Shown: positions 1,582-43,368, counted from the first letter of the stretch. The stretch: DNA of 64,000 bases from Minisyncoccota bacterium (GCA_035583355.1 DATEZQ010000011.1:19648-83647), one strand, 5' to 3'. Notes: generated from the letters alone by a model not told the origin. Made by a program: numbers and translations.

Positions 1582-1587
1582 AATGGA

Positions 1588-1706: not shown

Positions 1707-1716
1707 TCCAGGTAAT

Positions 1717-2001
1717 GTGTTAATTTTTCCTTACATGCGAACTAACCATAACGAAATCTTCCATGGCGTGACCCTCCAGATGATTCTGGAGTTCTTGGTT
1801 GCACGCTACGGCTGGGAAGAGCTCGACAAGCGCATGCGTATCAACTGTTTTGCAATCAATCCAAGCATCAAATCGAGCCTTGTATTCCTCCGTCGTACCC
1901 CTTGGGCGCGAGCAAAAGTCGAGGATCTCTATGAAGAGACTGTTGTCATGGATGCACGCGACAAGAAGCAGGGGATCGAGCCTGGAGCAAAGCGATTCTA
2001 G
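1717..2001 (+). CDS. Small conserved protein resembling the DUF2132 / VF530 family
   Basis: HGVTLQMILEFLVARYGWEELDKRMRINCF...PSIKSSLVFLRRTPWARAKVEDLY matches my recollection of the VF530 consensus. The start may be the second ATG at 1735. Confidence 0.5.
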   Translation: MLIFPYMRTNHNEIFHGVTLQMILEFLVARYGWEELDKRMRINCFAINPSIKSSLVFLRRTPWARAKVEDLYEETVVMDARDKKQGIEPGAKRF

Positions 2002-2030
2002 AAAACACCATTCTTGTGGTGTTTTTTTGT
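2002..2030 (+). terminator. Rho-independent terminator
   Basis: aaacaccattcttgtggtgttt hairpin followed by a T7 run. Confidence 0.65.
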
Positions 2031-2167
2031 TGAAAACACAAAACTATACAATGAAATAGGAGAATTTCAATGTTTTTGCAGACTTATTTTGGGCGAAAAA
2101 ATGTTGCAAAACCTCAATAAACGTGTTAGTGTTACTCCATTATTAAGAAAACAATAGAGGAAAGAAT

Positions 2168-2860
2168 ATGTCAGAAAATACCGTAATTGATGCTTTGTTT
2201 AATGCCGGTGCGCACATTGGATATGGGCGCCCTCGCCGCCATGCCTCTGTGCGCTCACAATTGTTTGGCGCAAAGAATGGCGTAGACATCATCGATCTTA
2301 CAAAGACCGCAAAGCAGCTCGAGGCTGCAAGCTCAGCAGTCCGTGAACTCGGAAAGCAGGGCAAGATGGTGCTTTTTGTTGGTGCAAAGAAGGAGATCGC
2401 AGATCTCGTCGTTGATGCCGCAACAGCCGTTACTATGCCTTTTGTTGCAAGCCGCTGGCTTGGAGGTACACTCACGAACTTCATTGAGATTAAGAAGCGT
2501 ATCGCACGCATGAAGAGTCTTACTGAGCAGTTTGCAAAGGGTGATCTTGTACAGAAGTACACAAAGAAGGAGCGTCTTATGCTTGAGCGCGAGCTTACTC
2601 GTCTCAAGGCAGATTTCGGCGGTATCGCCGCACTTGAGCAGCTTCCTGCAGCACTCATCGTCGTTGACGCACGTGCTGAGGAGATCGCAGTAACCGAGGC
2701 AATCAAGCTTCGTATTCCTGTTATCGCACTTGCAAACACAGACAACAACATCTCAAAGATCACGTTCCCTGTGCTCGCAAATGATTCAGCTCGTGAGAGC
2801 GTGAAGTACTTCCTTGATACGGTGGCTACATCGTTGAAAGCCGGCATCGCCCAGAAGTAA
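2168..2860 (+). CDS. rpsB: 30S ribosomal protein S2
   Basis: 230 aa. AGAHIGY...RR motif region and overall S2-like pattern. Immediately upstream of tsf, the conserved rpsB-tsf order. AGAGGAAAG Shine-Dalgarno-like sequence upstream. Confidence 0.8.
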   Translation: MSENTVIDALFNAGAHIGYGRPRRHASVRSQLFGAKNGVDIIDLTKTAKQLEAASSAVRELGKQGKMVLFVGAKKEIADLVVDAATAVTMPFVASRWLGGTLTNFIEIKKRIARMKSLTEQFAKGDLVQKYTKKERLMLERELTRLKADFGGIAALEQLPAALIVVDARAEEIAVTEAIKLRIPVIALANTDNNISKITFPVLANDSARESVKYFLDTVATSLKAGIAQK

Positions 2861-3026
2861 GAACGCCCCTTCGGGGACCAGGCGTTCTTGCCCGTAGATG
2901 TCGCGCCACCGCGCGTCACATCAACTCGAGGAACTGCTTCGCATTTCCTCTTTCGGGTAGCTTTGAACGTCACATTAATTAGATCTTTTGAAGTGACTTT
3001 GTCATTTCTTGATAAAATATATTCCT

Positions 3027-3626
3027 ATGGAAATCAGCATGGACATGGTGAAGCAGTTGCGTGATGAGACGAATGTCGCAATCATGCAGTGCAAGAAGGC
3101 GCTCGAGGATGCGGGCGGTGATATGGAGAAGGCACGTATTGCGCTCCGTAAGAAGTCAGCAGAGATTGCAACGAAGAAGGCAGACCGTACCCTCGGTTCT
3201 GGTGTCGTCGCTGCATACATTCACGGCAATTCAACAGTCGGCGCAATGGTAGAGCTTAACTGTGAGACAGACTTCGTTGCAAAGAACGAGGACTTCAAGC
3301 AGCTTGCTTACGATATCGCGATGCACATCGCAGCTGTCGCTCCAAAGTACCGTGTTGAGGAGGATATCCCAGAGTCTGACCGCGCAAAGGCTATCGAGTT
3401 CTTCAAAGAGGAAGTTGATAAGCAGATGGCGGGAAAGCCAGAGGAGATCAAGCAGAAAGCGCTTGATGGAAAGATCTCAGCATTCTTCGCAGAGCAGGTT
3501 GTCATGAAGCAGCCATACGTCAAGAACCCAGACATTACGATTGCACAACTCATCGAGGGTGCGGTTCAGAAGTTTGGAGAGAAGACGGAGTTGGCACGCT
3601 TCTCACGTTTCGTAGTCGGTAAGTAA
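3027..3626 (+). CDS. tsf: Elongation factor Ts (short form)
   Basis: MEISMDMVKQLRDETNVAIMQCKKALEDAGGDMEKA aligns to the EF-Ts N-terminus (E. coli [27 protein letters not shown]). TDFVAKNEDF motif present. The ORF track's start at 3009 is a TTG; I prefer the ATG at 3027. Confidence 0.85.
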   Translation: MEISMDMVKQLRDETNVAIMQCKKALEDAGGDMEKARIALRKKSAEIATKKADRTLGSGVVAAYIHGNSTVGAMVELNCETDFVAKNEDFKQLAYDIAMHIAAVAPKYRVEEDIPESDRAKAIEFFKEEVDKQMAGKPEEIKQKALDGKISAFFAEQVVMKQPYVKNPDITIAQLIEGAVQKFGEKTELARFSRFVVGK

Positions 3627-3653
3627 TTTCCCAAAGGGAAATTACTTCCGCGG

Positions 3654-4139
3654 ATGTCTCGCTTGTCGAGTCAACATATGATACTTCTTATCACAATTTG
3701 GGGGCTAGCACTGCTTGTTGTGCTTGGCGCACTTGGCGCTGCATTTTTCGGAGTGCAATCGCAGGCAGGGCAACGCTCGCGCGGTATACCTGCAACTTGG
3801 TGGGATATGTACATTTTGACCTACCAAGATTTCATGCGTGCACTTGTAGACCTATGGCACGATTTCATGCCATATGTACATAATGCAACGACGCATGTAC
3901 TCTCACGAGTACTTGCATGGCGTGATCGCACCTATGCGAAGCTCTTCGGGTATCCTGCAGTGCCTCATGGTGGTGTCGTGTCATTTTTCTTGAAGAGAAT
4001 AGTGGAGCATAAAGAAGAGTTTCGTCAGAAGGTCGCTCATCGTAGGGCAGTGTATGAACCCCTCCTCGACAGAAAGCCAAGATCATCGTTTGCTGATATG
4101 CGACCCGATCATAAGGCTGATGAGCATTCGACAAAATAA
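3654..4139 (+). CDS. Hypothetical membrane-anchored protein
   Basis: 161 aa with an N-terminal TM segment (ILLITIWGLALLVVLGALGAAFF). No family recognised. Confidence 0.4.
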   Translation: MSRLSSQHMILLITIWGLALLVVLGALGAAFFGVQSQAGQRSRGIPATWWDMYILTYQDFMRALVDLWHDFMPYVHNATTHVLSRVLAWRDRTYAKLFGYPAVPHGGVVSFFLKRIVEHKEEFRQKVAHRRAVYEPLLDRKPRSSFADMRPDHKADEHSTK

Positions 4140-4188
4140 ACTTTTTCGGTTATATTGTATCGGCATTCAACTGAATGTCGATACCACT

Positions 4189-4264
4189 GCCACCTTAGCT
4201 CAGTTGGTAGAGCAACGGTTTTGTAAACCGTAGGTCGTCAGTTCAAGCCTGACAGGTGGCTCCA
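4189..4264 (+). tRNA. tRNA-Thr (anticodon UGU)
   Basis: Canonical cloverleaf. Acceptor GCCACCT/AGGTGGC, D-stem GCTC/GAGC, anticodon stem ACGGT/ACCGT with loop TTTGTAA (anticodon TGT), T-arm GTCAG-TTCAAGC-CTGAC. Encoded discriminator T plus CCA. Confidence 0.9.
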
Positions 4265-4267
4265 AAA

Positions 4268-4300
4268 ACATAAAACCCCCCAATGCGGGGGTTTTTGTTT
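4268..4300 (+). terminator. Rho-independent terminator after tRNA-Thr
   Basis: aaaacccccc-aatgc-gggggtttt followed by tgtttttgg. Confidence 0.7.
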
Positions 4301-4302
4301 TT

Positions 4303-4323
4303 GGGCCACCTGTCAGGCTTGAA
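4303..4323. repeat. Inverted copy of the tRNA-Thr 3' end
   Basis: gggccacctgtcaggcttgaac is the reverse complement of tRNA positions gttcaagcctgacaggtggc. With the terminator at the centre this makes a ~30-bp-arm inverted repeat. Confidence 0.6.
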
Positions 4324-4324
4324 C

Positions 4325-4498
4325 GCGGAGGGGTCGGGAGGGGACTCCCTCTCCCGCGAAGGAGAGCAGGAATTCCCTTTGTTGCGGCAACAAAAGGAAT
4401 TCCGTCGAGAACCGTGGGTTCTCGAGGAGCAGGGCCGTGCGGGGCCCCTCTGGGGTGCGCGGCATCGCGACGTGAAAGTCCTGCAGCTGTATTAAAAA
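4325..4498. other. GC-rich multi-hairpin island (candidate structured ncRNA or remnant)
   Basis: About 65% GC against ~47% background. Consecutive near-perfect palindromes: gaggg-gact-ccctc; ctctcc-cgcgaa-ggagag; ggaattccctttgttgc/gcaacaaaaggaattcc (15 bp, 1 mismatch); cgagaacc-gt-gggttctcg; ggggcccc. The overlapping ORFs on both strands look spurious. Confidence 0.3.
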
Positions 4499-4527
4499 GC
4501 ACCCCTCCTGGGGTGCTGTATTTTTTT
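4499..4527. terminator. Bidirectional rho-independent terminator
   Basis: gcacccctcctggggtgc hairpin flanked by an A-run on one side and a T-run on the other. It ends the minus-strand gene 4529..5107 and any plus-strand transcript of the GC-rich island. Confidence 0.6.
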
Positions 4528-4528
4528 C

Positions 4529-5107
4529 CTACACCGGTATCGCATCCTTATGCTCCGGCTCGAACTCTACCCATTCTCCATGCTTCTTCACGAGCATCTC
4601 CTTGATTTCCTTTCGGAATTCGAGTCCATGCATCTTGAATGCATCGAGGCACATGAGGCTTGCGACTTCGCTGAACTGGCTGCTCGAGACGTGAAGCAGA
4701 TCGACTGCTTCCTTTATCTCGAATTGCGAAAGTGAGCGGTCGTGGAGCTTTTGCACTGCTGACCGCAGGATGTTGTAGTCCCTGAACCGGCGGGCAACGA
4801 GAATGACCTCATCCTTCGTTGCTTTATCGAGATGTTCTCCGCACATCATGATGAGCCTGAAGAAATCCCTTGCCTGAGCTTGGATGATCCAATTGCTGTT
4901 GAGCTCGGGGAGCATCAAGAAGCAATCCTTGACGAGTTGTTGATAGGCCCAACTTGGGGCTTCCATTTCGTTGAGGCGTTGTACGGTGTGCTTCGCGAGT
5001 GAGAGGGCGTACGGGCTGCTCAGCCCAAGTATTCCCTTGATATCGAAAGCAAGATGCGTCGCGAGTGGCATGAGTCCACTACTGTTTGCGCGAAGAGGGC
5101 TACTCAT
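4529..5107 (-). CDS. Hypothetical protein
   Basis: 192-aa ORF, helical-looking, several His residues. No confident family assignment. An HD-like fold is possible but the motifs are not clear. Confidence 0.45.
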   Translation of the reverse strand: MSSPLRANSSGLMPLATHLAFDIKGILGLSSPYALSLAKHTVQRLNEMEAPSWAYQQLVKDCFLMLPELNSNWIIQAQARDFFRLIMMCGEHLDKATKDEVILVARRFRDYNILRSAVQKLHDRSLSQFEIKEAVDLLHVSSSQFSEVASLMCLDAFKMHGLEFRKEIKEMLVKKHGEWVEFEPEHKDAIPV

Positions 5108-5211
5108 GAGGGCTCCTTATGGTGTGGGGTTGATGAAAGAGCAAGTTGTTTCGGAGAAATACCTTAACACATATTGTGTATTATGGCAATTCAAGAAAGA
5201 CGCTGAAATAA

Positions 5212-5243
5212 AAAAGTAGCGCGAATTTCTCGCGCCACTTATT
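5212..5243 (-). terminator. Rho-independent terminator for gene 5255..5713
   Basis: gcgcgaatttctcgcgc palindrome with a T6 run on the minus strand. Confidence 0.5.
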
Positions 5244-5254
5244 GGTGAAAATTA

Positions 5255-5713
5255 TTAGCGTTTTTTCAGCGGCACAACTGACTTGATGTGTGCTCGTCCG
5301 GAGATTCTCCCAATGACATACACAACTCGAATCTGCTTGCCGGGTGACAAGAAACGAAAGTCGTTGATGTCCGTCGTGAAAGTGAATTCATTTTCCCCCA
5401 TATTGAAAGCAAGGAAGCATTCCTCACTTGAATACATGAAGGGGAAGAATCCAAATTTCTCTGTGCGTTTCTCTCGGTGGGTCACCTTGGACTCAACGTT
5501 CACTTTTGCGCAGAACCATGAGTCGAGTGCCTCGTAGACCCAATTCACGAATGCCGCGACTGCAGCCAGTGCGAGGAAAACGACGCAGAGCATCACTGCG
5601 AGAATGCAGATGGCACCGATGCGGTGGGGGATATCAAGACCCGGGGTGAAGATTTCCTTGATGAGAAACCAGATAAAGCCAAAGAATGCAACGAGGCTGT
5701 TTCCGCTGTCCAT
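5255..5713 (-). CDS. Hypothetical membrane protein
   Basis: 152 aa. Two N-terminal TM helices followed by a soluble ~90-aa domain, an architecture like bacterial PH-domain membrane proteins. Inference only. Confidence 0.45.
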   Translation of the reverse strand: MDSGNSLVAFFGFIWFLIKEIFTPGLDIPHRIGAICILAVMLCVVFLALAAVAAFVNWVYEALDSWFCAKVNVESKVTHREKRTEKFGFFPFMYSSEECFLAFNMGENEFTFTTDINDFRFLSPGKQIRVVYVIGRISGRAHIKSVVPLKKR

Positions 5714-5840
5714 GATGGACTCCTTTTTGGTGGCAATTTGCCAACAAATATAATACCATATAAATTAGTTTTGTCAATGTAAAAATATACAAAAACCCTC
5801 ATTTTACGCATGTTTCTCCGTGTGATATGATGGATTCACT

Positions 5841-6614
5841 ATGTATTCACGAGAGCAAATCGGCCTTGACGCTACGCTCCCTGGGAAGGGGAATGAGCGC
5901 GGGCACATGCATCCAGTATCGATCATGATGCGTGATATCAACAGCATCTTCGGTTCAATGGGTTTTACCATTGCTGATGGTCCAGAAATAGAAACTGAGC
6001 ACTACAACTTCGACACACTGAATATTCCAAAGGATCATCCTGCGCGCGATATGTGGGATACTTTTTGGCTTTCGGATAGTCGCGGACTCGAGCGCTTGCT
6101 CTTACGTACGCATACGTCGCCCGTGCAGATTCGTCACATGGAAAAGCAAGGTGCGCCAATTCGTATTATTGCTCCCGGAAAGGTCTTTCGTTACGAGGCA
6201 ACCGACGCAACACATGAAGCACAATTCCATCAGTTTGAAGGATTGATGATAGGTAAAGAAGTATCGCTTGCAAACCTCAAGGGTATGCTCGAGCTCTTTT
6301 TCGCACGCCTCTTTGGTCGTCCGATGATGGTGCGTTTCCGCCCATCGTACTTTCCATTTACTGAGCCATCAGTGGAGATTGATATCGGTTGGACAGACAG
6401 TAAGGGCAAGGTAGAGAAGTGGATCGAGGTGATGGGTGCAGGCATGGTCCATCCTGAGGTGCTCCGTGCAGGCGGCATCGATCCAAATAAGTACCAAGGC
6501 TTCGCATTTGGTGGCGGTGTCGATCGTTTCGTTATGCTTAAGTGGGGAATCCCTGATATCCGTACGCTCTACAATGGTGATCTCCGCCTCGTTGATCAGT
6601 TCGATACCATCTAA
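5841..6614 (+). CDS. pheS: Phenylalanine--tRNA ligase alpha subunit (N-terminally short form)
   Basis: GHMHPVSIMMRDINSIFGSMGF, FDTLNIPKDHPARDMWDTFW, FRPSYFPFTEPSVEID and GFAFGGGVDRFVMLKWGIPDIRTLYNGDLR class-II aaRS motifs. Only 257 aa. Confidence 0.85.
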   Translation: MYSREQIGLDATLPGKGNERGHMHPVSIMMRDINSIFGSMGFTIADGPEIETEHYNFDTLNIPKDHPARDMWDTFWLSDSRGLERLLLRTHTSPVQIRHMEKQGAPIRIIAPGKVFRYEATDATHEAQFHQFEGLMIGKEVSLANLKGMLELFFARLFGRPMMVRFRPSYFPFTEPSVEIDIGWTDSKGKVEKWIEVMGAGMVHPEVLRAGGIDPNKYQGFAFGGGVDRFVMLKWGIPDIRTLYNGDLRLVDQFDTI

Positions 6615-6625
6615 TTTTTCTTGTT

Positions 6626-8587
6626 ATGATTATCTCTCGAAAATTACTCCAATCCTATTTCGATAAACCACTGCCAAAGGCAGATGTCATCGCGGCGAAA
6701 TTGACCGCGCATAGTTTTGAGATTGAAGGAATGGAAGCAAAAGGTGGTGATACGTTGATCGATGTGAAAGTGCTTCCAAATCGTGCACACGACTGTCTTT
6801 CACATCGTGGTGTTGCACGTGAAGTTTCTGCGGTGCTCGATTTGCCAATGCGTAAAGAGGTAGTTGTGAAACTCCCAAAGGGTAGTGCGAAGGCACCCAA
6901 GATCGATGTACAGATAAGTGATAAGCGCGCATTTCGTTACGCTGCGCTTGTATTGGATAACATTACGGTTGGTCCATCACCAAAGTGGCTCAAGGAGGCG
7001 CTGGAGACACTTGGCGCGCGCTCTATCAACAACGTTGTTGATGCAACAAATTATGTACTCTATATGATGGGGCAACCACTCCATGCTTTCGACTACGCAA
7101 AGCTCGCAGGCGCAAAGATTGTCGTACGCGGTTCAAAGGAGGGTGAGCAGATCACAACCCTTGATGGGAAGCAGCTCATGCTTGATGTGGGGACGCTCGT
7201 CATCGCAGATAAGAACGTTCCACTCGCTATCGCAGGGGTAAAGGGTGGTATGGTGGCAGAGGTGACCAGTGAGACGAAAACTATTGTACTCGAGTCGGCA
7301 AACTTTGATGGAGCAACGGTGCGACGTGCGGCGCAGCGCTATAATTTACGCACTGATGCTGCGAAGCGTTTTGAGCAGGGCATGACGCCACACTTTGTTG
7401 ACGAGGCGCTTGCTATGGTTGCAGGCATTATCATCGATATTGCAGGAGGAAAACAGGTTATTGTCGGTAACCCAGTCATAAAGGGTGCAGCACTCCCAAA
7501 GCAGCGCAGTGTGACGGTTTCACTTCTCCAAATCGAGCGTATCGTCGGTGCAAAATACAATGCAGCAGATGTTGCACGTATTTGGAAGCGACTTGGTTTT
7601 ACTACGAAGGTAAAGGGGAAGGGTACAGAGAGTGTATGGACAATCACTGTCCCACATGAGCGTCTCGACATCACAATGAAGGAAGATCTCGCAGAAGAGG
7701 TCTGTCGTCTCGTAGGTCTTGAGGATCTTATTGGAACACTTCCGCTCGAGCCAATGGTCGCTCCGATGCCAAATCCATTTTGGATACTTCGAGATAAGGC
7801 ACGAGAGGTGATGCTTGCTGCAGGATTCTCAGAAGTATACACCTATTCATTCAATAATCTTGGTGAAGTAGAGTTGCGTAATCCGATGGCTTCTGATCGC
7901 AAGACCCTCCGTAATAATTTGTCGCATGGTCTCCGCGAGGCACTTACCGAAAACCTCAAATATCGTGAAGCGGTGCGTATTTTCGAGTTCGGCTCCGTCT
8001 TTGGCAAGAATGCTGGTAAAGTAGCCGAGAATCGCTCATTTGCGGCCGCTATAGGCTTCCAGAAGCGCAAGCAGGGCCAGGTAAAGGATGACTTCGTACA
8101 ACTTAAGGGTCTGCTCGACGCAGTGGCACAGGCCTGTGGATTCTCCGGATTTCGTTATGTTGAAGCGGGTGGAGATGTTGCTGCAGAAATCTATGTCGGG
8201 AAGACACTTGTCGGCGTATTCCATGTACAAGGCTTTGAACTTGATTTCGATATGCTCGTTGAGCTCGCAGGTAAGGAGAAGCAGATGCGCTACCGTGCAC
8301 CAAGCAAGTTCCCATCAATGATCCGTGATGTCGCGCTCTGGGTACCCCAAGAGGTACGTGCAGGGGATATCGATGCAATCATCCGCGGTGCGATGGGTCC
8401 ACTCGTTACGAACGTTGCACTCTTCGATGTCTTCGAAAAACCCGAAGAGAAGAAAAAGAGTTTTGCATTTCGCATGACACTGCAAAGTGATGAGCGTACG
8501 CTCTCTGATGAAGAGGCGAACGTCGTCGCCGAGAAGGTGGTCGCAGCACTTCGTGCTGCGGATGCGCGCTTCGATGTCCGCTCATAG
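6626..8587 (+). CDS. pheT: Phenylalanine--tRNA ligase beta subunit (lacks N-terminal tRNA-binding domain)
   Basis: 653 aa. B3/B4 and B5-like regions. C-terminal ferredoxin-fold anticodon-binding region (FDVFEKPEEKKKSFAFRMTLQSDERTLSDEE). Immediately downstream of pheS. Confidence 0.85.
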   Translation: MIISRKLLQSYFDKPLPKADVIAAKLTAHSFEIEGMEAKGGDTLIDVKVLPNRAHDCLSHRGVAREVSAVLDLPMRKEVVVKLPKGSAKAPKIDVQISDKRAFRYAALVLDNITVGPSPKWLKEALETLGARSINNVVDATNYVLYMMGQPLHAFDYAKLAGAKIVVRGSKEGEQITTLDGKQLMLDVGTLVIADKNVPLAIAGVKGGMVAEVTSETKTIVLESANFDGATVRRAAQRYNLRTDAAKRFEQGMTPHFVDEALAMVAGIIIDIAGGKQVIVGNPVIKGAALPKQRSVTVSLLQIERIVGAKYNAADVARIWKRLGFTTKVKGKGTESVWTITVPHERLDITMKEDLAEEVCRLVGLEDLIGTLPLEPMVAPMPNPFWILRDKAREVMLAAGFSEVYTYSFNNLGEVELRNPMASDRKTLRNNLSHGLREALTENLKYREAVRIFEFGSVFGKNAGKVAENRSFAAAIGFQKRKQGQVKDDFVQLKGLLDAVAQACGFSGFRYVEAGGDVAAEIYVGKTLVGVFHVQGFELDFDMLVELAGKEKQMRYRAPSKFPSMIRDVALWVPQEVRAGDIDAIIRGAMGPLVTNVALFDVFEKPEEKKKSFAFRMTLQSDERTLSDEEANVVAEKVVAALRAADARFDVRS

Positions 8588-9091: not shown

Positions 9092-11220
<2,129 letters not shown>

Positions 11221-11221
<1 letters not shown>

Positions 11222-11252
11222 AAAAAGAAGAAGCTTTGCTTCTTCTTTTTTT
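11221..11252 (+). terminator. Rho-independent terminator after gyrB
   Basis: aaaaaagaagaagc-tttg-cttcttcttttttt. Confidence 0.7.
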
Positions 11253-11650
11253 ATGCATCAATATTTGCTTACTTTGTGCTGATGATTACAGCGTCGGTCT
11301 TTTTGTCGGGATTATGCTCTTTTCATTCCGCTTCGCGCTCAATGTATTTTTATACACCTCGCTTGCGATGCTCATTCCAAAGAGCATGCTGCCGACAAAA
11401 ATCCTCGACGTTTCATTGAGTGAAAATATATTTTCCGAAAAAACTAAGTACATTTTTTGTTTTCTCTGGTGACTACTCGAAATAAAATTTGTGAAAAATT
11501 TAAGAGAGAAATTTCAAATCATAAGTTGGAAAAGTTGCAAGGGTTATATTAAAAAATGCAGATGGGAATGAGGGTGATCGGGGAGAAGGAAAAGAAGGAA
11601 AGAGTTAATACAAAAATCGTAATAAAACAAAATATCAAGTACGTCAAGTG

Positions 11651-11847
11651 TGTGGAGTACATTACTAACGTCAGTGATAGAAATGGCCGTTAAGCCATCT
11701 TTTTTGTTAGTGGGGAATACAAGGGGTTTCGGGGAAAAACTGTGGATAACTTTTGCATTTGCAAATGAATAACATGTGGATAAGAAACAAAATAGCGCTC
11801 TGTTCCGCGGTAAAATATAGATATAACACTTGCAGGAGTTATCCACA
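11651..11847. promoter_or_regulatory. DnaA-box cluster in an AT-rich 690-bp intergenic region (candidate oriC or DnaA-regulated promoter)
   Basis: Perfect TTATCCACA boxes at 11741-11749 (rc), 11776-11784 (rc) and 11839-11847. One imperfect box tgtggagta at 11651-11659. A 12-bp perfect palindrome catttgcaaatg at 11756-11767 lies between boxes 1 and 2. A very AT-rich stretch at 11441-11560 could act as a DUE. Confidence 0.5.
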
Positions 11848-12120
11848 CCCACTTGCAACTCGTTATGGAATACACATGGAGGAGTGGCTGCTCCTTTGTG
11901 TAAAATTTAATGAAGCACGAACCGGAAAACAGTGTTGTGCATCTTCCTCGGAGTGGCATAAAACCGCCACCAACAAGGATTATGCAACATGTCTCCTCAC
12001 CGAATGCGAGTGGGGCTGTTCTGCTATCTCAGAGGAAAGCTACTGTATCTGTTGCAGTTCCTCGCACTGCAAACATCCCTGTTTCGCTGCGACCTGCTGA
12101 TTTGACGCTCCAGAGTTTTT

Positions 12121-12165
12121 CTGTTACGCGCGCGCGTACGCACGCGCACGCACACGCGCGAAAAG
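12121..12165. repeat. (CG/CA)n alternating purine-pyrimidine tract
   Basis: ctgttacgcgcgcgcgtacgcacgcgcacgcacacgcgcg. Potential Z-DNA and slipped-strand tract just upstream of the probable start of the secreted-protein gene. Confidence 0.7.
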
Positions 12166-12176
12166 ATGAAGGGGCA

Positions 12177-13877
12177 TTGAGGAGGGTACTTGATGCTGCG
12201 CTTACTGGTGGTGATGTTCGCATTGCTGCGCTCAAGCCTTCGTCTACGCTTACGCGTTTCTTTGCTTGGCTTCTCATTCCTGCGATGCTCATCACTCCAC
12301 TTGTTCCTGCGTACGCGAATGAGGCGCCGCTTGCAGACCGTGTTGCAAGTGATGTTGCTGCAATCGTTGCTGATTCAGCAATCGCAGAAAGTGTTACTGA
12401 GCCTGCTGGGGCTGTTGCTGCTGTCGCTGAGGTCGCTGAAGCAGATGCGCCAAGTGCGACTACTGGCGAAGTGCAAGTTGATACTCCTCCATCTATCCCA
12501 GGTAATGAAACTCCCCTAAGCGAAGAAACAACTGGCGAGAGTTCGGGGACTTCTGGTGACGTAGTCTCTCCTTCAACTCCTGACACCCCGGCAACTGGGG
12601 AAGTGGTGACTGTTGGAGAAGATCAGGTGCCTTCTTCGGGTGGCGCAAGTGCAGATGCTGGTGCGCCTGCTGCTACAAACACGCCGAGCGAAGTTATACC
12701 CGCAGATAGCGATTCGTCAGTAAACACGCCGAGTGAAGTAATCGTTTCGGATAATGATTCTTCTGCAACAACTTCGACGACAACGATTCCTGTGGATGAT
12801 TCTACGCAGACTGATTCGATGGCTTCGACCACTGAGGATGGGGTTACGCCGATCTTTGACATTGCACCTGATGAGGTGATGAGCAATGTTGATGCTATTC
12901 GTGCACGCTTGCGCAATGAAATGCGCGGACAGCTTCGTGATGAGGTTCGTAATGAGGTGAAGCAGGAGGTGCGACGTGAAGTTGAGGAAGAGGTCTATCG
13001 CGGATGTAAAAATCTTGATGGTACTGGCTACTACTGTATTCCTGATGCGAAGAGTTTTGGATCACCGGTTATTGAGAATGAGCGATCGATCGAAGTTGTC
13101 GTGCAGCCTGATCCGATTACTGGAAATAAACAGATCTTCTTGGTGCGCGGAGCTAGTACGATACAGCTCACGCATGGAACAGATGATAATGTTTTCCCTG
13201 TACTTGATCCACTTTCAGATACGCTTGTATGGCAGTCACTGCAAAGTGGTCGTTGGCAAGTTGCCTTTGCACACTTGAGTGATGTTGGTGTGCCGAAGGT
13301 GCAGTATCTCACGAGTGGTGAAAATAATTTTAATCCAAAGATTTATGCGGGCCGCATTGTATGGCAAGCATGGGTTGATGGTAACTGGGAGATATTCACT
13401 GCAATGCCGTCGAAAGATAAAATTCCTGATGAAGCACTTTCGGCTGAACATCGCGCCGCAGGTGTGGGTGGTGATTGGCAGGTGAAACGTATCACCGCAA
13501 ATAGCGCTCCCGACATGTTCCCAACTATTACGGGCGAGACAATCACGTGGCAGGCAGTCGATGGTGGTGTCTGGCAGGTCTTTGCCTATGACATCGCAAC
13601 GAGTGTTGCGCATCGTGTTTCGAAGCCAGGAGTGAAGAGTGATTCACCGAAGGTTGCGCTTGTTTGGAATGAAGAAGATGCAAATGGTCAGATGCGCATG
13701 GTGGGTACGAGTGTCGATGGCTCTGAGTCATTCGATTTCACTGCACTTGCAAGACGTATCGTTGATAATACTAAGGGAGAACCAAAATCTCCTGTTTCGA
13801 ATACGGAAATCGTTGTGGTTACTCCAGTTGCAGTACGCACGGAGTCTGAGGCTTCATCGACACCTCCCGTGAACTAA
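12177..13877 (+). CDS. Secreted protein: signal peptide, acidic Ser/Thr/Asp-rich linker, TolB/PD40-like beta-propeller repeats
   Basis: Signal peptide FFAWLLIPAMLITPLVPAYA|NE. Low-complexity linker. Repeated W-Q motifs (TLVWQSLQSGRWQVAF, GRIVWQAWVDGNWEIFTA, TITWQAVDGGVWQVFAYD) typical of PD40 propeller blades. The ORF-track start at 11910 would put 90 aa ahead of the signal peptide, so I propose the TTG at 12177. The start is uncertain. Confidence 0.5.
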   Translation: MRRVLDAALTGGDVRIAALKPSSTLTRFFAWLLIPAMLITPLVPAYANEAPLADRVASDVAAIVADSAIAESVTEPAGAVAAVAEVAEADAPSATTGEVQVDTPPSIPGNETPLSEETTGESSGTSGDVVSPSTPDTPATGEVVTVGEDQVPSSGGASADAGAPAATNTPSEVIPADSDSSVNTPSEVIVSDNDSSATTSTTTIPVDDSTQTDSMASTTEDGVTPIFDIAPDEVMSNVDAIRARLRNEMRGQLRDEVRNEVKQEVRREVEEEVYRGCKNLDGTGYYCIPDAKSFGSPVIENERSIEVVVQPDPITGNKQIFLVRGASTIQLTHGTDDNVFPVLDPLSDTLVWQSLQSGRWQVAFAHLSDVGVPKVQYLTSGENNFNPKIYAGRIVWQAWVDGNWEIFTAMPSKDKIPDEALSAEHRAAGVGGDWQVKRITANSAPDMFPTITGETITWQAVDGGVWQVFAYDIATSVAHRVSKPGVKSDSPKVALVWNEEDANGQMRMVGTSVDGSESFDFTALARRIVDNTKGEPKSPVSNTEIVVVTPVAVRTESEASSTPPVN

Positions 13878-13879
13878 AC

Positions 13880-16800
13880 ATGATAAGAAATAACGCCTAC
13901 AATCTTTTCGAAAAGACATGCACAATGATGCTCATCATGGCGTTGTTTTTGGTCAGCAGTGGTGGTCCAGAAAGCATGCGGTTTTTTGTTCATCCACTGG
14001 GAGTAAAATCGGCTGAAGCGGCGCAGACGAGCTATGGCAAGGAGTTGCGTACTGCCGAGTTTGTGCTTGGTGGTGGAAGTGATAATGCGTTGCGCGCGAG
14101 TGGAGTTATAGGGTATGCGGGGGCGAGCACCTGGGCAACTACAAAGCCCGCACTGCTTACTGGTGGTGATGTGGTAAAACTTTTGGGTACGGGAATTTCT
14201 GTCATCAACGCACAGCTTGATGTGTCATATGAATTTCCATCCGCGGCTGCCGCGACAGTTTCTGAGAATAAGATTTATCTTGACGTTGAAGGTGCTGCAA
14301 CGCAGGGGAGTAACACTCCTGTCAATGAAGCGAATGGCGCATCTCCACTTGCGGTTATGGCTGGAGGAACAGGATACCTACGTACAATACATGATGTAAC
14401 CAGTTTTTTTGATCGACAGTCTGACGCTACTTGGAATAGTGGTGTGCACGTGATAGCTGCGGTTGCTCCGACGCTTACTGCTGGTAATCGTGCGCTCACG
14501 ACTGCAAAGCTGCTTGTTACGTATGAGGTTGATATCGATCCGGCGATTACACAGCTCGTGAAGACAGTGCGTATTCCGCTTGCATCGAGTGGGGTTGCAG
14601 GAAATACAGGCTCTCGCACTACGGTTTGTGCAGCAGGGGCGACATGTCCTTTCACTTTTGATACTACAGTTATTCGTGATCTTGCTGCTGATGCAGATAT
14701 TCTTGATGCGCATATTGAATTTTTTGCGCAACAAGCAAGTAATGTAAATTCAACATACAGACTTCAGTTCGCAGGCGGCACTGCATCGCCGCTCTATGCT
14801 TGGAATGAGGCAGTTGCAGATACACACAATACACGTGTGCTTTGGGGAGCATTGCCGATCGGCGGGGCGAATCTGCGTGCGCAAACTGCACACACATTGA
14901 ATCTCGTGAACACTGCGGGTGGCGCGCCGCTTTATGCAACGGGTGGTGAGGTAGTGATTACCTATGTATTCAATCCGACTGCTGCAACACAAACAGAGAC
15001 GATTCGTTACTTTGTTGATCAGGAAACAGCATCACCTGGATCGGGAGTGAATGCTGCTATTGCGGGAACGAATGTGGTCATTGCAAATGATGCTCCTGTT
15101 GTGGAAAAGGCATGGTATCGTATGCAGCTTGCCCCAGTGTTCGCTGCGGCAACAACGATGACCGTCACCCATAGTGTGGGTGGGGTAAATGGTACTGCAC
15201 AAGTGTACCAGTTTCCTGCTCCTTCAACAGCGCGAAGAGCTGCAAACACACCCGTGGTGATTCATAGCCTTACTCCCGAAACGCTTTCATTCTCCGCGTC
15301 TACTCCAGTCGGTGGGACGTTTCGCTTTAGCGCAGCGGGTGGATCTCCTGTCGCTATCGAGGTAGTGACGACATTTTCTTGGAGTTATTCAATTTCGAGT
15401 AGTCAGACGAAGACTGCATTGTTTGGTGCATCACTCCCATCGATTGGCCGAAATGTTGGAACTGTCGATAAGGTGCGTCATACGATGCTGTATCTTCCTG
15501 AACGTGCAGCAAAAACATTTGAAGATGGATTTCTTGAGGCGCACTATACACATCATGATGCGTCAGCAATTTCAATTTCAAGTGGTATTCATATAGGTTT
15601 TGGGACTTCGACGACTGCAAATGCCTTGACTGTGACAGAGCTAGGCGGAACAGGGGGAACATATTCATATAGCGCTCGGTTGTATGCGAAGTTTACTTCT
15701 TCAGCTATTGGGTCATCAGTAAATTTGACCAAGCAACGTTATCCGTTTGCGGTTGAAGAGAGCGTTGATGTTGCTGCTGACTTCACCTACTTCGCGAACA
15801 CTGTTGTACTTACTTATACGGTTGCGGCACCACTTGCATATAGTCCACATCCAAAACAGTTGCGTACTGCTGAGTTTTTACTTGGTGGGGGATCTGAACA
15901 GGCGACGCGCGCAACGGGAGTGTATTCGTATGCAGGTGCATCTTGGAATACAACAAAACCTGCAGGAGAATTGATTAAGTTGCTTGGAGATGATGCGGAG
16001 GTCGTGAGTGCGTACGTGGATTTATCTTTCTCTACTACGAACATTGTGGCAGTCACCGGACTCACTGTATTGGGGGATATTACGGGTTCTATAGATAGCG
16101 ATGCAACAAACGTTACGCTTTATACTGCACCGATGAATCAAATTGTGGGTGGAGGAAGTACGGTAACGGGTTATTACCATGCTCAGATTGATGCAACAAG
16201 AATGTTTATTGGACAGTCGAGTGCATCGCTCAATGCGGGAGTGAATTTTGGGATTGGTGTTGCTGCGACAGGTCCAACTCGTGCACTCACTTCTGCAAAA
16301 CTTGTGGTGACCTATGAGAGCACGTACTCACTCAATCCAATGGTAGGAACGAAGACCGTACGTTTCCCACTCGATTCGACAACAGGAACAGATGTCGGCT
16401 CCAAGACTACAACATGCACCACCACAGCTTGCGGATTTACCTATAACGCCGCAATTGGAGATTTGCTCAACAGTGATACTGCGAATATTCTTTCGGTGCA
16501 TGCAGAGATTTCTGCACTTGCGAACTCGGCGGGTGCGGCAGCAGCACGTGCATATACAATTACTATTGCACATTCTCCTGGTTCAAGTGCAACATATAAT
16601 CCCGTTGAGACCGCACTGGACTCAACAGGCCTTCGTCTTATGTGGGGGATGCCTATCGGGGGAAATGACTTTGTAGTGAATACTCCAAGAACGCTTAATA
16701 TCGGTGCGAACACGACAAATGTTCCCCTTGCGCATCTTGGTGGAGAGATCGTCGTGACTTATGCATATTCAAGTCGCTCGACAAATCAATCGGAGACACT

Positions 16801-19249
16801 CGTGTATCCACTTGGGCAACTTGCCGTTGCTCCAGCAGTGGGTGCAACAACAACGATAGGTACTTTTACTCCCGTACTTCCCATGCAGGATGCACAAGTG
16901 CAGCAGATGTGGCTCCGAGTGCGCTATTCACCGCATAGTTCACTTTCTGCAATTATTGAGGGAAGTGTCGGTGCGTCATTACTTGGACGCACTTATGCAG
17001 CAGGGACAATGACTAATCGTGGAGGTGGTGAAACTTATATTCTCCATGATATGACTTCATTGATAGGAGCATATGCCACTTCAGGGACTGCAATTGGTGC
17101 AAAGATAAAATTCGTGACCGCAGCAGTTCCCGCAACTGCAGAATTATTTATCACATATGTTTGGGACGGGAGTCATGGTGGTACGCAAGCGCGTAGCGTT
17201 TCATATGTAGCGCCACAGCAATATGCTCCAAGCACGGCTGTTGCGTCAACAACATATCCTTTTGCAATTGATTTTGCGCGTGATGTGGGGAAGATATTCC
17301 GAGCTGCTCAGCTTGAAACATTTATTGCTCATGGAAACAGTACCACCATTACACGTGGAGGAATTGAAACATCGCTAAACGGAGTTACTACAACACTGAC
17401 CGAAGCAGGCGCAGCAACCTCGTATCCATATAATACCGTGATGGTTGATGGATTTACTGCAACCGATTTGTGGGGTAGCGCGAGCATGCCGAGTAGTACG
17501 GTTGCACTGCAAGTTCGAAATGCGAAGACCACCACAGTGAATTATCTGAACTTTAGTAACGTGCTCACGGTTACTTACGAGGAAATGCAAGCGGTACGAA
17601 GGGCAACATTTATTCAGGCGGGTTTCCGTATATATGCGGACAATGGAGCACTTACGCCTCTTGATTCTTGGTACCCGGGGTATCCGAATCAAATCGGAGA
17701 TGATCAGGAGATGACCGTAGCTAATAGACCGGTCAGAAAGAGTGACAGTGTACGTTTGCGTATCGCACTTGCCGTGAGTACCTCGACAATGCCTATAGAT
17801 GATCGCGCATTTCAATTGCAGTCCGCATTGAAGCCGATTGGTACATCTTGTAGTGCGATTGCGCCTGCATCATGGACTGCGGTAAGTAGTACGGGAGACT
17901 GGTCGGGATACAACAATACAGGTCTTGCAGCGTCAGCGATTATACCGACTCCACTTGTTGCGGTGAGTATTGGACATGTTCCACAACTCTATTCCGAAGA
18001 TGGAATAACGGGCACAAATCCAAATGCTGCGAATGTTAGCGAGACAGGAGATGTCATTGAGTATGATTGGGCATTAAAACGCAATAATGCAGTTAAAGAT
18101 GCTGACTATTGTTTCCGTGTCACTGAAAGTGATGGTACTCCAATTTTTGGATATGACTTCTACCCAGTTATGCGTACTGCGGGGTATACACCAGAAATCG
18201 CGTCTTGGCGTTGGGTGGACAACTATGCAAATGAAGCAGGTTGGCAGTCGTTGCTCGGTGCTGGATTGAATATTGCACCATCGGGGCTTCCAAATAGAAC
18301 TATTATAAAGCTACGTGTTGCTTTGCAGGATGTTGCGAATGAATCCGGAAGTAATGAGCGTTACGCAGTGCAGTGGTCTGAAGATCCAACATTTACAACA
18401 GGGGTATTCTTTGCAGACTTAGAAGGGAATTGTGTTGCAACAAGTACGTTTTGCTATGCAATAGGAATTGGTGCTGATGATACGAGCCTCAGTGTACAGA
18501 CCATAGGTGGTACGGTGCTCGGGAGGCATAATGAAGCAACGAGTTCTTCAACATTCTCTCCTGCAGCAAATAGTCTGACTGAGATGGAATATACACTGAC
18601 TTCACAAAGGCAGCGTACTGGACAGGCATATTACTTCAGGCTTTTTGACGTGAATAGGGGAATACCGTTACTCAAGAGCGCCTCTGTATACCCATCACTT
18701 ACTGCTGAGGGTGCGACGGTCAATGGTCTTGTTAGTGGTGTAAATGCTGGTGTTACTATAGATGGCTTAGTAACAACAGGCACGACAACTGCAACAACTA
18801 CTCCATTCGGAATGTTGACGATGGATACAATTGCAATACTTGCGCACCGCATCAGTATCTCCACAAATGCGATGATGGGTTATCAGGTGAATATGCAAGC
18901 AGAGGGTGATCTTAAGAATTTGTACGGTGAGATCGTTCCGTCAATTGCGGGCGCTCCTAATGCAGCACCGGTCAGTTGGAGTGTTGGTTGTCCAGCGCTG
19001 AGCGTAGGATGTATTGGCTACCATACTTCTGATCATACATTGAGTCCTGACGGTGTACCTGATCGTTTCGCTGCGAGCGATACGTGGGCAGAATTCGCGA
19101 CTTCAACGCCTTCAGAGGTTGGCTATTCTGATCTACCAACTGTAGGGACGGAGCAGTTCGATGTTGTGTATAAAATCGAACCCCATGCAGCTACTCCTCC
19201 AGGGTCTTATCGTACAAATATTTTGTATATAATTACCCCTGTCTATTAA
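13880..19249 (+). CDS. Giant (1789 aa) secreted/surface protein with an internal ~600-aa tandem duplication
   Basis: ATG 2 nt after the upstream stop, suggesting translational coupling. N-terminal hydrophobic segment. Repeat unit KELRTAEFVLGGGSDNALRASGVIGYAGASTW...KLLVTYEVDIDP recurs as KQLRTAEFLLGGGSEQATRATGVYSYAGASWN...KLVVTYESTYSLNP. Thr/Ala/Gly/Val-rich, very few charged residues. Confidence 0.6.
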   Translation: MIRNNAYNLFEKTCTMMLIMALFLVSSGGPESMRFFVHPLGVKSAEAAQTSYGKELRTAEFVLGGGSDNALRASGVIGYAGASTWATTKPALLTGGDVVKLLGTGISVINAQLDVSYEFPSAAAATVSENKIYLDVEGAATQGSNTPVNEANGASPLAVMAGGTGYLRTIHDVTSFFDRQSDATWNSGVHVIAAVAPTLTAGNRALTTAKLLVTYEVDIDPAITQLVKTVRIPLASSGVAGNTGSRTTVCAAGATCPFTFDTTVIRDLAADADILDAHIEFFAQQASNVNSTYRLQFAGGTASPLYAWNEAVADTHNTRVLWGALPIGGANLRAQTAHTLNLVNTAGGAPLYATGGEVVITYVFNPTAATQTETIRYFVDQETASPGSGVNAAIAGTNVVIANDAPVVEKAWYRMQLAPVFAAATTMTVTHSVGGVNGTAQVYQFPAPSTARRAANTPVVIHSLTPETLSFSASTPVGGTFRFSAAGGSPVAIEVVTTFSWSYSISSSQTKTALFGASLPSIGRNVGTVDKVRHTMLYLPERAAKTFEDGFLEAHYTHHDASAISISSGIHIGFGTSTTANALTVTELGGTGGTYSYSARLYAKFTSSAIGSSVNLTKQRYPFAVEESVDVAADFTYFANTVVLTYTVAAPLAYSPHPKQLRTAEFLLGGGSEQATRATGVYSYAGASWNTTKPAGELIKLLGDDAEVVSAYVDLSFSTTNIVAVTGLTVLGDITGSIDSDATNVTLYTAPMNQIVGGGSTVTGYYHAQIDATRMFIGQSSASLNAGVNFGIGVAATGPTRALTSAKLVVTYESTYSLNPMVGTKTVRFPLDSTTGTDVGSKTTTCTTTACGFTYNAAIGDLLNSDTANILSVHAEISALANSAGAAAARAYTITIAHSPGSSATYNPVETALDSTGLRLMWGMPIGGNDFVVNTPRTLNIGANTTNVPLAHLGGEIVVTYAYSSRSTNQSETLVYPLGQLAVAPAVGATTTIGTFTPVLPMQDAQVQQMWLRVRYSPHSSLSAIIEGSVGASLLGRTYAAGTMTNRGGGETYILHDMTSLIGAYATSGTAIGAKIKFVTAAVPATAELFITYVWDGSHGGTQARSVSYVAPQQYAPSTAVASTTYPFAIDFARDVGKIFRAAQLETFIAHGNSTTITRGGIETSLNGVTTTLTEAGAATSYPYNTVMVDGFTATDLWGSASMPSSTVALQVRNAKTTTVNYLNFSNVLTVTYEEMQAVRRATFIQAGFRIYADNGALTPLDSWYPGYPNQIGDDQEMTVANRPVRKSDSVRLRIALAVSTSTMPIDDRAFQLQSALKPIGTSCSAIAPASWTAVSSTGDWSGYNNTGLAASAIIPTPLVAVSIGHVPQLYSEDGITGTNPNAANVSETGDVIEYDWALKRNNAVKDADYCFRVTESDGTPIFGYDFYPVMRTAGYTPEIASWRWVDNYANEAGWQSLLGAGLNIAPSGLPNRTIIKLRVALQDVANESGSNERYAVQWSEDPTFTTGVFFADLEGNCVATSTFCYAIGIGADDTSLSVQTIGGTVLGRHNEATSSSTFSPAANSLTEMEYTLTSQRQRTGQAYYFRLFDVNRGIPLLKSASVYPSLTAEGATVNGLVSGVNAGVTIDGLVTTGTTTATTTPFGMLTMDTIAILAHRISISTNAMMGYQVNMQAEGDLKNLYGEIVPSIAGAPNAAPVSWSVGCPALSVGCIGYHTSDHTLSPDGVPDRFAASDTWAEFATSTPSEVGYSDLPTVGTEQFDVVYKIEPHAATPPGSYRTNILYIITPVY

Positions 19250-19424: not shown

Positions 19425-20615
19425 GTGAACACACATTCGCACAAAGCGACGCAGCAACTCTTCGCCCTGTTTTTTGGGTTTTTGATGCTGCCGATTTTCG
19501 CTTTTGCAGCCTCCTTTGAAGTGACTCCAAAGGTTATTGATGTGAAAGGAAAAGTACGCGAGATCAGCCATCATAATTTGACGCTGAAAGCGACTGGCGC
19601 AGGCGTCTCTACACTGTATGTTTGGGTTGTTGATGTTGATCAGGTGAAGGGTGATCTCGCAAAGAGTGATATGAGTGGCATCAATGCAAACTCACTTGAC
19701 GCAAGCCCCTCACGCTGGATCGAAATACCCCGTTCAATCAACTTGCTTCCTAAGGAAGAACAGACGGTACCATTTCAAATGCAAATACCTGCGCGTGCAA
19801 GACCAGGCAATTATCATGTGGCGCTAAAATTCGCATCGGGTCAAACGCAATTTGATGCACAGAAGTGCGAAAGTTGTACTGAACAAGTATTGATGAATAT
19901 CGAAGTCACTGAAGATATTCGAGAGAAGTTACAACTGTTTTCATTTACTGCTGCGAAGAATATTTTTGTTCGACCGAGTGCTGAATTTAGTTTTGCAGTT
20001 GAGAATACAGGTAACCGTGCGCTTGTCCCTAATGGCAAGATACGAATTTTTGATAATACGGGAAAAGAAGTCGGGCTTGTTGATGTAAATGCAGACGGGA
20101 AACAAGTGGAACCAAAAGGCAAAGAGTTATTAGCTGCATCGTGGGCGGCAGGGGGACACTTCGGAAAATATAAAGCCATGCTTGATATGAGTTATGGTCA
20201 ACGTGGTACGATGCAAGACGTCGTATATTTCTGGGTTATTCCTTGGTCAAAGATGCTTGGTTTCGGTTTCACGCTCATTGTGCTCATGGTGCTCTTTATG
20301 TTATTTGCGCGTGGACGAGATCTTGCTCGCCCACAGTATGCATATGCAGAAGCAGTAGAACCTACACCTGCGCAAGAAGCAGAAAGTCAGGTTGAAGAAA
20401 ATGAAATACGCGAGGGCATGCTCAGTCGCATTGCGCGACGCTTTAGGAGGAATGGAAATCGACTCGAGGATGTCATTAACGAGAGCGAATTGAGCAGTCT
20501 CACTGAAGTTAATATCCCTGTGCGTACACGTACTGTTCCTCCTGCACACTATTCCGTGCAGCTCGAACAGAAGGTTCGCGTGGTTCCTGAGAATCATATC
20601 GTGCGCCTCCGCTAG
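19425..20615 (+). CDS. Cell-surface protein, signal peptide plus C-terminal TM anchor (paralog 1 of 3)
   Basis: Signal peptide LMLPIFAFAASFEV. W..IP....L.P...TVPF.MQIPARARPGNYHVALKF block. C-terminal TM GFGFTLIVLMVLFMLFARGR followed by a basic stretch. Architecture resembles the Firmicute DUF916/DUF3324 WxL-locus anchored proteins. That link is hypothesis only. Confidence 0.55.
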   Translation: MNTHSHKATQQLFALFFGFLMLPIFAFAASFEVTPKVIDVKGKVREISHHNLTLKATGAGVSTLYVWVVDVDQVKGDLAKSDMSGINANSLDASPSRWIEIPRSINLLPKEEQTVPFQMQIPARARPGNYHVALKFASGQTQFDAQKCESCTEQVLMNIEVTEDIREKLQLFSFTAAKNIFVRPSAEFSFAVENTGNRALVPNGKIRIFDNTGKEVGLVDVNADGKQVEPKGKELLAASWAAGGHFGKYKAMLDMSYGQRGTMQDVVYFWVIPWSKMLGFGFTLIVLMVLFMLFARGRDLARPQYAYAEAVEPTPAQEAESQVEENEIREGMLSRIARRFRRNGNRLEDVINESELSSLTEVNIPVRTRTVPPAHYSVQLEQKVRVVPENHIVRLR

Positions 20616-20620
20616 TCAAT

Positions 20621-43265: not shown

Positions 43266-43368
43266 TGGATATATTATACGTCTTCATATGCCCTCGGGCA
43301 AGTGGAAGAACAATTGGTTAGTTACTTCATGCTGGTACTGTAAAGGGAAGCCTTGGTACAATGTCACT

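Follow-up and report, generated by a model that had tools for sequence, protein, structure and literature searches.

The box triad downstream of gyrB and its conservation

We analysed a 64,000-nucleotide stretch of DNA from a Minisyncoccota bacterium (GCA_035583355.1 DATEZQ010000011.1:19648-83647), referred to here as the window, and concentrated on the gap between gyrB and the operon that follows it, where three perfect DnaA boxes are clustered. The gap runs from the gyrB stop codon (11221) to the next ATG (11910), spans 688 bp and is 63.5% AT. To its left lie prfA, rpsB, tsf, pheS, pheT and gyrB, which agrees with the calls of gyrB, pheST, rpsB and tsf in a preliminary description of the window, and the best matches of the GyrB protein (up to 74% identity) were found in metagenome-assembled genomes of Patescibacteria/Paceibacteria. 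Two proteins encoded in the window have identical counterparts in a metagenome-assembled genome of 'Candidatus Paceibacterota' (locus tags VJ579_). That description had proposed the gap as a candidate replication origin (oriC), with a DnaA-regulated promoter for the surface operon or a relic origin as fallbacks. Its account of a long and AT-rich gap holds, but the gap is not featureless, since it contains a terminator, a hairpin of 120 nt, a -10-like element and a leader hairpin.

The three perfect TTATCCACA boxes are located at 11741-11749 (minus strand), 11775-11783 (minus strand; previously placed at 11776) and 11839-11847 (plus strand), all within 107 bp. Across the 64 kb, five perfect TTATCCACA boxes were counted against 0.52 expected, and five were reached in none of 100 shuffled sequences. 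Between the second and third boxes lies a -10-like hexamer, TAAAAT (11811-11816, plus strand), within the block GGTAAAATATA. Box 1, the distal box, reads TGTGGATAA on the plus strand and starts 70 nt 5' of this hexamer, box 2, the proximal box, starts 36 nt 5' of it, and box 3, in the opposite orientation, starts 28 nt past its start. Relative to the predicted transcription start near 11823, the box centres would fall at about -78, -44 and +20, respectively. Box 3 is flanked by an inverted repeat, TTGCA (11830-11834) and TGCAA (11854-11858). A further motif, GTT(A/G)AGCCAT (11689-11698), is found about 43 bp 5' of box 1; nine of its ten columns are invariant among five loci, and a recognisable version is present in L085 and L083 too. 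In the window this motif overlaps a weak terminator-like hairpin, the structure of which is not conserved.

Between box 3 and the ATG, a hairpin with a conserved loop region, GUGGCUGC, occupies 11871-11902 on the plus strand. It forms in all five close loci, with z-scores of -2.3 to -3.7 in four of them and -0.3 in L091. The stem sequence varies among these loci while the pairing is retained, and this fits a transcribed leader.

We then compared the triad across genomes, using the protein encoded by the first gene of the operon, p655, as the query for finding related loci. A metagenome scan yielded only four distant homologues (29-33% identity), all four with DnaA-type boxes just upstream, and a profile search provided closer relatives on contigs L087/88, L089/90, L091 and L092. 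In all, 98 loci were fetched, and nine, with GC contents of 38-55% and first-protein identities down to about 30%, were used to determine the geometry of the triad, anchored on the -10-like hexamer. Contig L098 stops about 140 nt short of the main promoter, and the distant homologues on L093/L094 (24% identity, in a different gene cluster), where one 1-mismatch box only was seen, were left out. The hexamer was TAAAAT, TATAAT or TAGAAT in all nine loci. The proximal box started at -35 or -36 from it in every locus, the distal box at -68 to -70 in eight, and the downstream box at +25 to +29 in six, so that the offsets seen in the window (-70, -36 and +28) hold within 1-4 nt across the nine loci.

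All related loci that span the upstream region, namely L084, L087/88, L089/90, L091 and L092, carry the triad in front of the orthologous first gene. Spacings of 34 bp and 60-64 bp are common to these loci (34/60 in L084, 34/64 in the others), and L084 repeats the minus, minus, plus orientation of the window. In a five-way alignment, 26 of the 27 box columns and 10 of the 11 columns of the -10 block were invariant, compared to 22% of columns assigned to no feature. Between the window and L092, a genome of 38% GC, identity was 94% within the features listed and 41% elsewhere.

This conservation is linked to the operon and not to gyrB. Among the 98 fetched loci, matches to the composite triad pattern were confined to those bearing the operon. 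The 80 related gyrB loci that we compared (about 1.3 Mb), among which the upstream order pheS-pheT-gyrB is common, contain no box cluster, and all of them lack the downstream genes of the operon. As in the window, gyrB lies upstream of the element in L087 and L089. In L084, L085 and L086, however, the upstream neighbours are other genes, encoding peptidoglycan-binding proteins and an RRM protein. The presence of the element without gyrB in these three genomes indicates that the element belongs to the operon and travels with it.

The downstream operon and its internal promoters

The operon consists of six genes, none of which encodes a protein that reaches a Pfam gathering threshold. The first, p655 (11910-13877, plus strand), encodes a membrane-anchored protein that has a linker rich in Ser, Thr and Pro and whose C-terminal domain resembles a beta-propeller. 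The second (13880-19249, plus strand) encodes a protein of 1789 aa with an N-terminal hydrophobic segment and no family match, which is probably secreted; in related operons, a protein of about 1760-1790 aa likewise comes after the first gene. These are followed by two chaperone-like genes, p396 and p372 (19425-21739, plus strand), and by two paralogous pilin-like genes, p394 (22011-23195, plus strand) and p401 (23610-24785, plus strand; 391-aa form, identical to P0025).

Structure prediction for p396 (predicted local distance difference test score, pLDDT, of 76) gave a signal helix, two beta-sandwich domains, a C-terminal transmembrane helix (residues 274-300) and a disordered tail, and Foldseek matches of the model include a WxL-interacting protein, the fimbrial chaperone CfaA and RbmA. 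The layout of p372 appears to be the same, as judged from its sequence. The p401 model (pLDDT 82) comprises a signal helix and two beta-sandwich domains, with structural matches to adhesins and pilins. Pam pili of candidate phyla radiation (CPR) bacteria are built with membrane-anchored PapD-like chaperones and Ig-like pilins, the latter pairing an N-terminal beta-sandwich with a C-terminal Ig-like domain, and assemble by donor-strand exchange (bioRxiv 10.64898/2026.03.03.709456). The chaperone and pilin architecture of that system agrees with the p396 and p401 models, and the pair of PapD/FimC-like chaperones with a C-terminal transmembrane helix that characterises it is predicted here by the model of p396 and the sequence of p372. 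We therefore provisionally assign the operon to the Pam type of CPR pilus system. The operon differs from the described systems in several respects. Pam has been reported mostly in Saccharimonadia and Microgenomatia (bioRxiv 10.64898/2026.03.03.709456), whereas the present lineage is Paceibacteria. The match of p401 to the NCBIfam family NF058581 CPR_Pam_pilin_C (E=7e-5, 22.9 bits) is below the 55-bit cut-off, and no Pam structure was among the PDB structural matches of p401. In addition, we could assign the beta-propeller membrane protein and the 1789-aa protein to no described Pam component.

DnaA-type boxes recur within the operon. The putative internal promoter of p394 (21781-21825, plus strand) carries TTGTCCACA, TTATGCACA and TTATTAACA in tandem at 21781, 21793 and 21805, with a 12-nt period, abutting TAGTATAAT, with TATAAT at 21820. 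At the putative promoter of p401 (23303-23418, plus strand), TGGGGATAACTTT (23303) and TTATGCACA (23342) are followed by a tandem array of TTGTCCACA, TTATCAGCA and TGTTCACA at 23374, 23386 and 23398, again with a 12-nt period and abutting TAGTATAAT (TATAAT at 23413-23418). The tandem layout at the pilin promoters is kept in L087, L089 and L091, and is looser in L098 and L085. A 1-mismatch box (19377) together with a TATAAT is also found upstream of the chaperone-like genes. In total, the four intergenic regions of the operon (1,518 bp) hold nine boxes with at most one mismatch against 0.44 expected, a count reached in none of 5,000 simulations. The other intergenic DNA of the window (9,161 bp) holds only two.

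Single perfect boxes reading TGTGGATAA were seen at 46197-46205 in the window and at 3099-3107 of L082, a Logan contig that extends the window to the left, 28 and 27 nt 5' of a TATAAT, respectively. The former precedes a 632-aa gene without a family match (46260), and the latter a gene of the amino-acid-kinase family (possibly pyrH). Boxes adjacent to predicted promoters thus recur in this organism. Another perfect box (44262-44270) is intragenic, falling within an ABC-transporter ATPase gene (43288-44697), and has no obvious partner site.

A leader of about 180 nt is conserved 5' of both pilin-like genes (21831-22010 and 23424-23609) and was also seen at L087:16163-16342, L089:20095-20265, L091:10777-10957 and L098:9825-10003. 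It opens with a hairpin of the form AGGAGG-N4-CCTCC and contains an invariant GCGGGTTTTCCA(C/T)TTTC. RNAalifold predicted 41 base pairs for the six leader sequences, 13 of them with compensatory changes, and a comparison with Rfam gave no family match. The leader is a candidate for a new cis-regulatory RNA.

Two further observations concern the coding part of the operon. Within p655, at about codons 72-84, a 36-nt alternating purine-pyrimidine tract (12125-12160; TACGCGCGCGCGTACGCACGCGCACGCACACGCGCG), which is Z-DNA-prone, encodes RARTHAHAHAR. The tract is kept at the nucleotide level and at the same place in L087, L089, L091, L092, L095 and L098, including genomes of 35-38% GC, and may be an element sensitive to supercoiling or prone to slippage, or may reflect a constraint on the peptide. 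The distant forms of the operon start with an additional gene, of about 150 aa (L084:5719-6186, L085:6282-6743 and L086:9361-9810). Its product shows an N-terminal excisionase-type helix-turn-helix (a weak match to Pfam HTH_17, E=0.004), followed by a transmembrane segment, and may be a membrane-tethered co-regulator. This gene is not present in the clade of the window.

The remainder of the gap and the genomic context

The 3' end of gyrB overlaps a terminator hairpin (11200-11272, plus strand) with 35-nt arms that are 97% complementary, and this hairpin ends the upstream transcription unit. Between it and the AT-rich tract lies a second hairpin of about 120 nt (about 11290-11412), with a folding energy of -48 to -53 kcal/mol and z-scores of -6.6 to -7.5, whichever strand is folded. 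It is retained in L087, where compensatory changes are seen (ATGCTCTTT/AAAGAGCAT versus GCCCTCTTT/AAAGAGGGC), and to some extent in L091, and may represent a small RNA or what is left of a repeat or mobile element. Among known RNA families, only a tRNA at 4189 scored above threshold in the window, and none was significant in the gap.

The preliminary description had also pointed to an AT-rich stretch, a 12-bp palindrome and a 2-mismatch box, all of which are present. The stretch at 11441-11560 is 74% AT, and the most AT-rich 120 bp of the entire window (75.8%) is found at 11438-11557. The 3' half of this tract, at about 11511-11545 (AAATTTCAAATCA.AAGTTGGAAAAGTTGCAAGG), is kept in the two closest relatives. 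Its 3' end is 184 bp 5' of box 1 and the tract adjoins no box, unlike an unwinding element; it is possibly upstream promoter DNA. The palindrome CATTTGCAAATG (11756-11767), between boxes 1 and 2, is perfect in this genome only, with L087 reading CATTTGCAACTG and L089 reading CAGTTGTAATTG. Neither the palindrome nor the 2-mismatch box TGTGGAGTA (11651-11659), the one additional site beside the three perfect boxes, is conserved in relatives, and both are therefore probably incidental. A 16-nt direct repeat, TTTGTG(A/T)AAAATTTAA, occurs at 11488-11503 and at 11895-11910, where the second copy finishes on the A of the p655 ATG; the repeat is not conserved in L087 and L089. Small open reading frames (ORFs) in the gap, such as one of 45 aa at 11556-11693, were considered and dropped, as L087 has no ATG at the equivalent place.

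Neither dnaA nor dnaN was found in the window, in agreement with the preliminary description, by searches of nearly all ORFs of at least 150 aa outside larger ORFs against Pfam and NCBIfam and by a six-frame search for DnaA signature motifs. Contig L082 adds 7.8 kb to the left, so that about 72 kb of the genome was examined in total. Within the roughly 19 kb left of the locus, all but three of about 20 genes, including rpsB, tsf, pheST, alaS, prfA and gyrB, are on the plus strand, as is every gene in the 16 kb to the right and nearly all genes on L082. Several of the housekeeping proteins encoded at 601-8587 are short relative to their family models (PheT matches from profile position 158 of 798, PheS from 57 and RF1 from 44, and EF-Ts is 205 aa long), which fits a reduced CPR genome.

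Analysis of skew and gene orientation over the window and L082, which had been put forward as a check on the origin, showed no inflection and no divergence at the locus. Plain GC skew was positive over the whole window. As the coding bias towards the plus strand inflates this measure and makes it uninformative, we used four-fold degenerate sites grouped by gene strand instead. To the right of the locus, the four-fold GC skew on the plus strand was +0.14 for plus-strand genes and +0.34 for minus-strand genes, from which a replication component of about +0.24 follows. Left of the locus, minus-strand genes gave +0.23 in the window and +0.34 on L082, and the eight leftmost genes ranged from 0.00 to +0.26. 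The four-fold AT skew was negative on both sides (T>A on the plus strand). The plus strand thus behaves as the leading strand throughout. Four-fold skew in L084, L085 and L086, three other genomes carrying the element, showed no change of sign either; three minus-strand genes lie on the left of the element in L086.

Alternative explanations and relation to known systems

Taken together, these results suggest that the segment from 11689 to 11902 is the promoter and leader of a conserved six-gene, Pam-pilus-like operon in Paceibacteria, a CPR lineage, and that the three boxes are its operators; from the comparative sequence evidence we assign this reading a probability of roughly 70%. It draws on established observations: the boxes exist, they are conserved in a fixed arrangement and are linked to the operon and not to gyrB, and signatures of an origin are lacking. 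Of the possibilities raised in the preliminary description, it is thus the DnaA-regulated promoter that the comparative evidence favours. DnaA would bind the triad (about -78, -44 and +20) and the tandem arrays at the two internal pilin promoters, and expression of the filament would track the level or activity of DnaA, and with it the replication and growth state of the cell. The box at -44 would occupy an activator-like position at a promoter without a -35 element, while repressor-like positions would be taken by the +20 box and by the arrays that cover the core promoters of the pilin genes, which makes mixed or concentration-dependent control plausible. As a side effect, the sites, at least nine in number, could sequester DnaA, as do the non-origin clusters of Bacillus subtilis. 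A bolder proposal is that DnaA has been recruited as the main transcriptional switch of Pam-like host-contact pili, through the triad and the 12-nt-phased arrays, that filament production is thereby locked to replication and growth, and that the sites (at least nine) in turn buffer free DnaA; we put this forward tentatively, as less likely than not.

Several points weigh against the promoter reading. No -35 hexamer is recognisable at the expected spacing beside 11811-11816, and a scan with the sigma-70 consensus did not call a promoter there, which we ascribe to the missing -35 hexamer. The promoter role of TAAAAT and the start near 11823 are predictions from sequence, as are DnaA binding and the direction of regulation. 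Neither the organism's dnaA nor its true oriC was seen in the roughly 72 kb examined, and for its box preference we took the near-universal consensus. Immediately left of the locus, the translation genes (rpsB, tsf and pheST) show a negative four-fold GC skew; we attribute this to codon usage, since farther-left and minus-strand genes keep the right-hand sign, and this is an interpretation only. Finally, most loci have AT-rich DNA 5' of the boxes, in six of the nine within 12-33 bp, and this gives them a superficially origin-like appearance.

This last feature leads to the origin proposed initially, at which DnaA bound to the three boxes would open the AT-rich tract and launch bidirectional forks. 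Such a site would fit the mixed orientation of the three perfect boxes, the AT-rich DNA upstream of them, which includes the 120 bp richest in AT in the window and has counterparts in most related loci, and the neighbouring gyrB, which is commonly origin-proximal; in L084 and L085, the adjacent gene on the opposite flank is divergent. However, the sign of GC and AT skew does not switch at the site, here or in L084-L086, and genes run the same way on both sides, so that rpsB, tsf, pheST, alaS, prfA and gyrB would run head-on to a fork leaving from here. The window lacks dnaA and dnaN, the related gyrB loci lack the cluster, and the AT-rich tract is 184 bp away from the nearest perfect box. A bacterial unwinding module consists of a box followed by at least three DnaA-trios within 16 bp, beside AT-rich DNA (PMC8287927). 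Runs of three to four NAN triplets, counted by the loose published rule, do occur beside the boxes, but 68% of random positions in the window reach three or more, which is to say that the signal is at background. The left flank changes between genomes while the operon is constant, and 10-12 kb away the box motif is seen again at internal promoters. No similarity to a plasmid or phage origin was found. An oriC at this locus is therefore not supported and we regard it as highly improbable. Even less credible is that the boxes cluster by chance or are the decaying, now functionless relic of an origin, for which the absence of a nearby dnaA is the only argument; the shuffled sequences speak against chance, and boxes that are the most conserved columns of the region across genomes of 38-55% GC refute decay.

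Two further explanations accept the boxes as functional. One is that the locus is dedicated to titrating or modulating DnaA for the timing of initiation, in the manner of datA, DARS or the B. subtilis clusters, with no role in transcription of the operon. Clustered high-affinity boxes in non-coding DNA outside oriC define such loci; intergenic clusters in B. subtilis delay initiation (PMC3245932), the cores of the Escherichia coli DARS loci hold three boxes, two of which interact head-to-head (PMC5742627), and this gene cluster has at least nine near-consensus sites. Titration, however, does not need boxes fixed around and straddling a -10 element, nor arrays that directly overlap pilin core promoters, and the element co-migrates with one specific operon across genomes. 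The essential boxes of datA also point in the same direction and are accompanied by an IHF site, whereas the boxes here are mixed (minus, minus, plus) and no IHF site was established, none having been searched for systematically. The other explanation is that the 9-mers are operators for a different DNA-binding protein, such as an operon-specific regulator, and that their identity with the DnaA box is coincidental or convergent; this too must be counted against control by DnaA. Binding of DnaA is deduced from the sequence, the flanks past the 9-mer are conserved as well (GGATAACTTT), and a helix-turn-helix protein stands at the start of the distant operon versions in L084-L086. Yet the gene for this protein is not found in the window or in the closest relatives, whose boxes are the most perfect, and all three sites match the DnaA consensus at nine of nine positions. 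The variants TTGTCCACA, TTATGCACA, TTATACACA and TTATCCCCA found elsewhere in the cluster are typical of functional DnaA boxes, and this counts against another protein. Tandem boxes no more than 3 bp apart are, moreover, a known DnaA arrangement (PMC8287927). We consider these two explanations unlikely, and about equally so.

If the bolder proposal, with DnaA as the main switch, is correct, cell cycle and host attachment would be joined directly at the molecular level in CPR bacteria; the lineage is one of ultra-small Paceibacteria that are probably host-dependent. To our knowledge, CPR/Patescibacteria have very few recognisable transcription factors, and the regulation of the surface filaments that may mediate their contact with hosts is almost uncharted. 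The concrete hypothesis, which can be tested, is that DnaA as the initiator ties expression of the filaments to the state of replication. The locus also carries a practical caution, in that an origin finder that counts boxes could mis-call it as oriC in such genomes. In our literature search, no publication was found that seems to report a pilus or adhesin operon under DnaA control, and the preprint on the Pam pilus mentions neither DnaA nor promoters and does not address regulation (bioRxiv 10.64898/2026.03.03.709456).

The locus resembles several known systems without coinciding with any of them. With a bacterial oriC it shares perfect boxes in mixed orientation near AT-rich DNA, but it has only three strong boxes and shows no skew switch, divergence, linkage to dnaA/dnaN or trio signal above background. 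Promoters under DnaA control are familiar from E. coli, at dnaA and nrdAB, and from the DnaA regulon of Caulobacter (gcrA, ftsZ and podJ), where boxes in or near the core promoter tie expression to initiation potential and where DnaA also controls a polar-development gene. Unlike those cases, three perfect consensus boxes serve what would be a single promoter here, which is unusually strong. DARS1 and DARS2 are likewise non-coding box clusters, the cores having three boxes with two opposed (PMC5742627), but these cores are not built around a -10 element and datA has its same-direction boxes and IHF site, while the present boxes straddle a -10-like hexamer with spacings of 34 and 64 bp. In both B. 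subtilis (PMC3245932) and E. coli (PMC5742627), it is established that DnaA serves as a transcription factor at clusters of boxes that lie outside oriC. The B. subtilis clusters, such as those at yqeG-sda, ywlC-ywlB and yydA-yycS, are high-affinity, intergenic and outside oriC as well; they are placed upstream of genes under activation (sda) or repression (ywlC, yydA) by DnaA, and jointly restrain initiation (PMC3245932). The present case differs in its surface-filament operon, its CPR host, and its fixed triad with internal arrays. The element is thus of a known kind, that of DnaA-box clusters and promoters outside oriC, and what is new is the class of target and the lineage in which it occurs.

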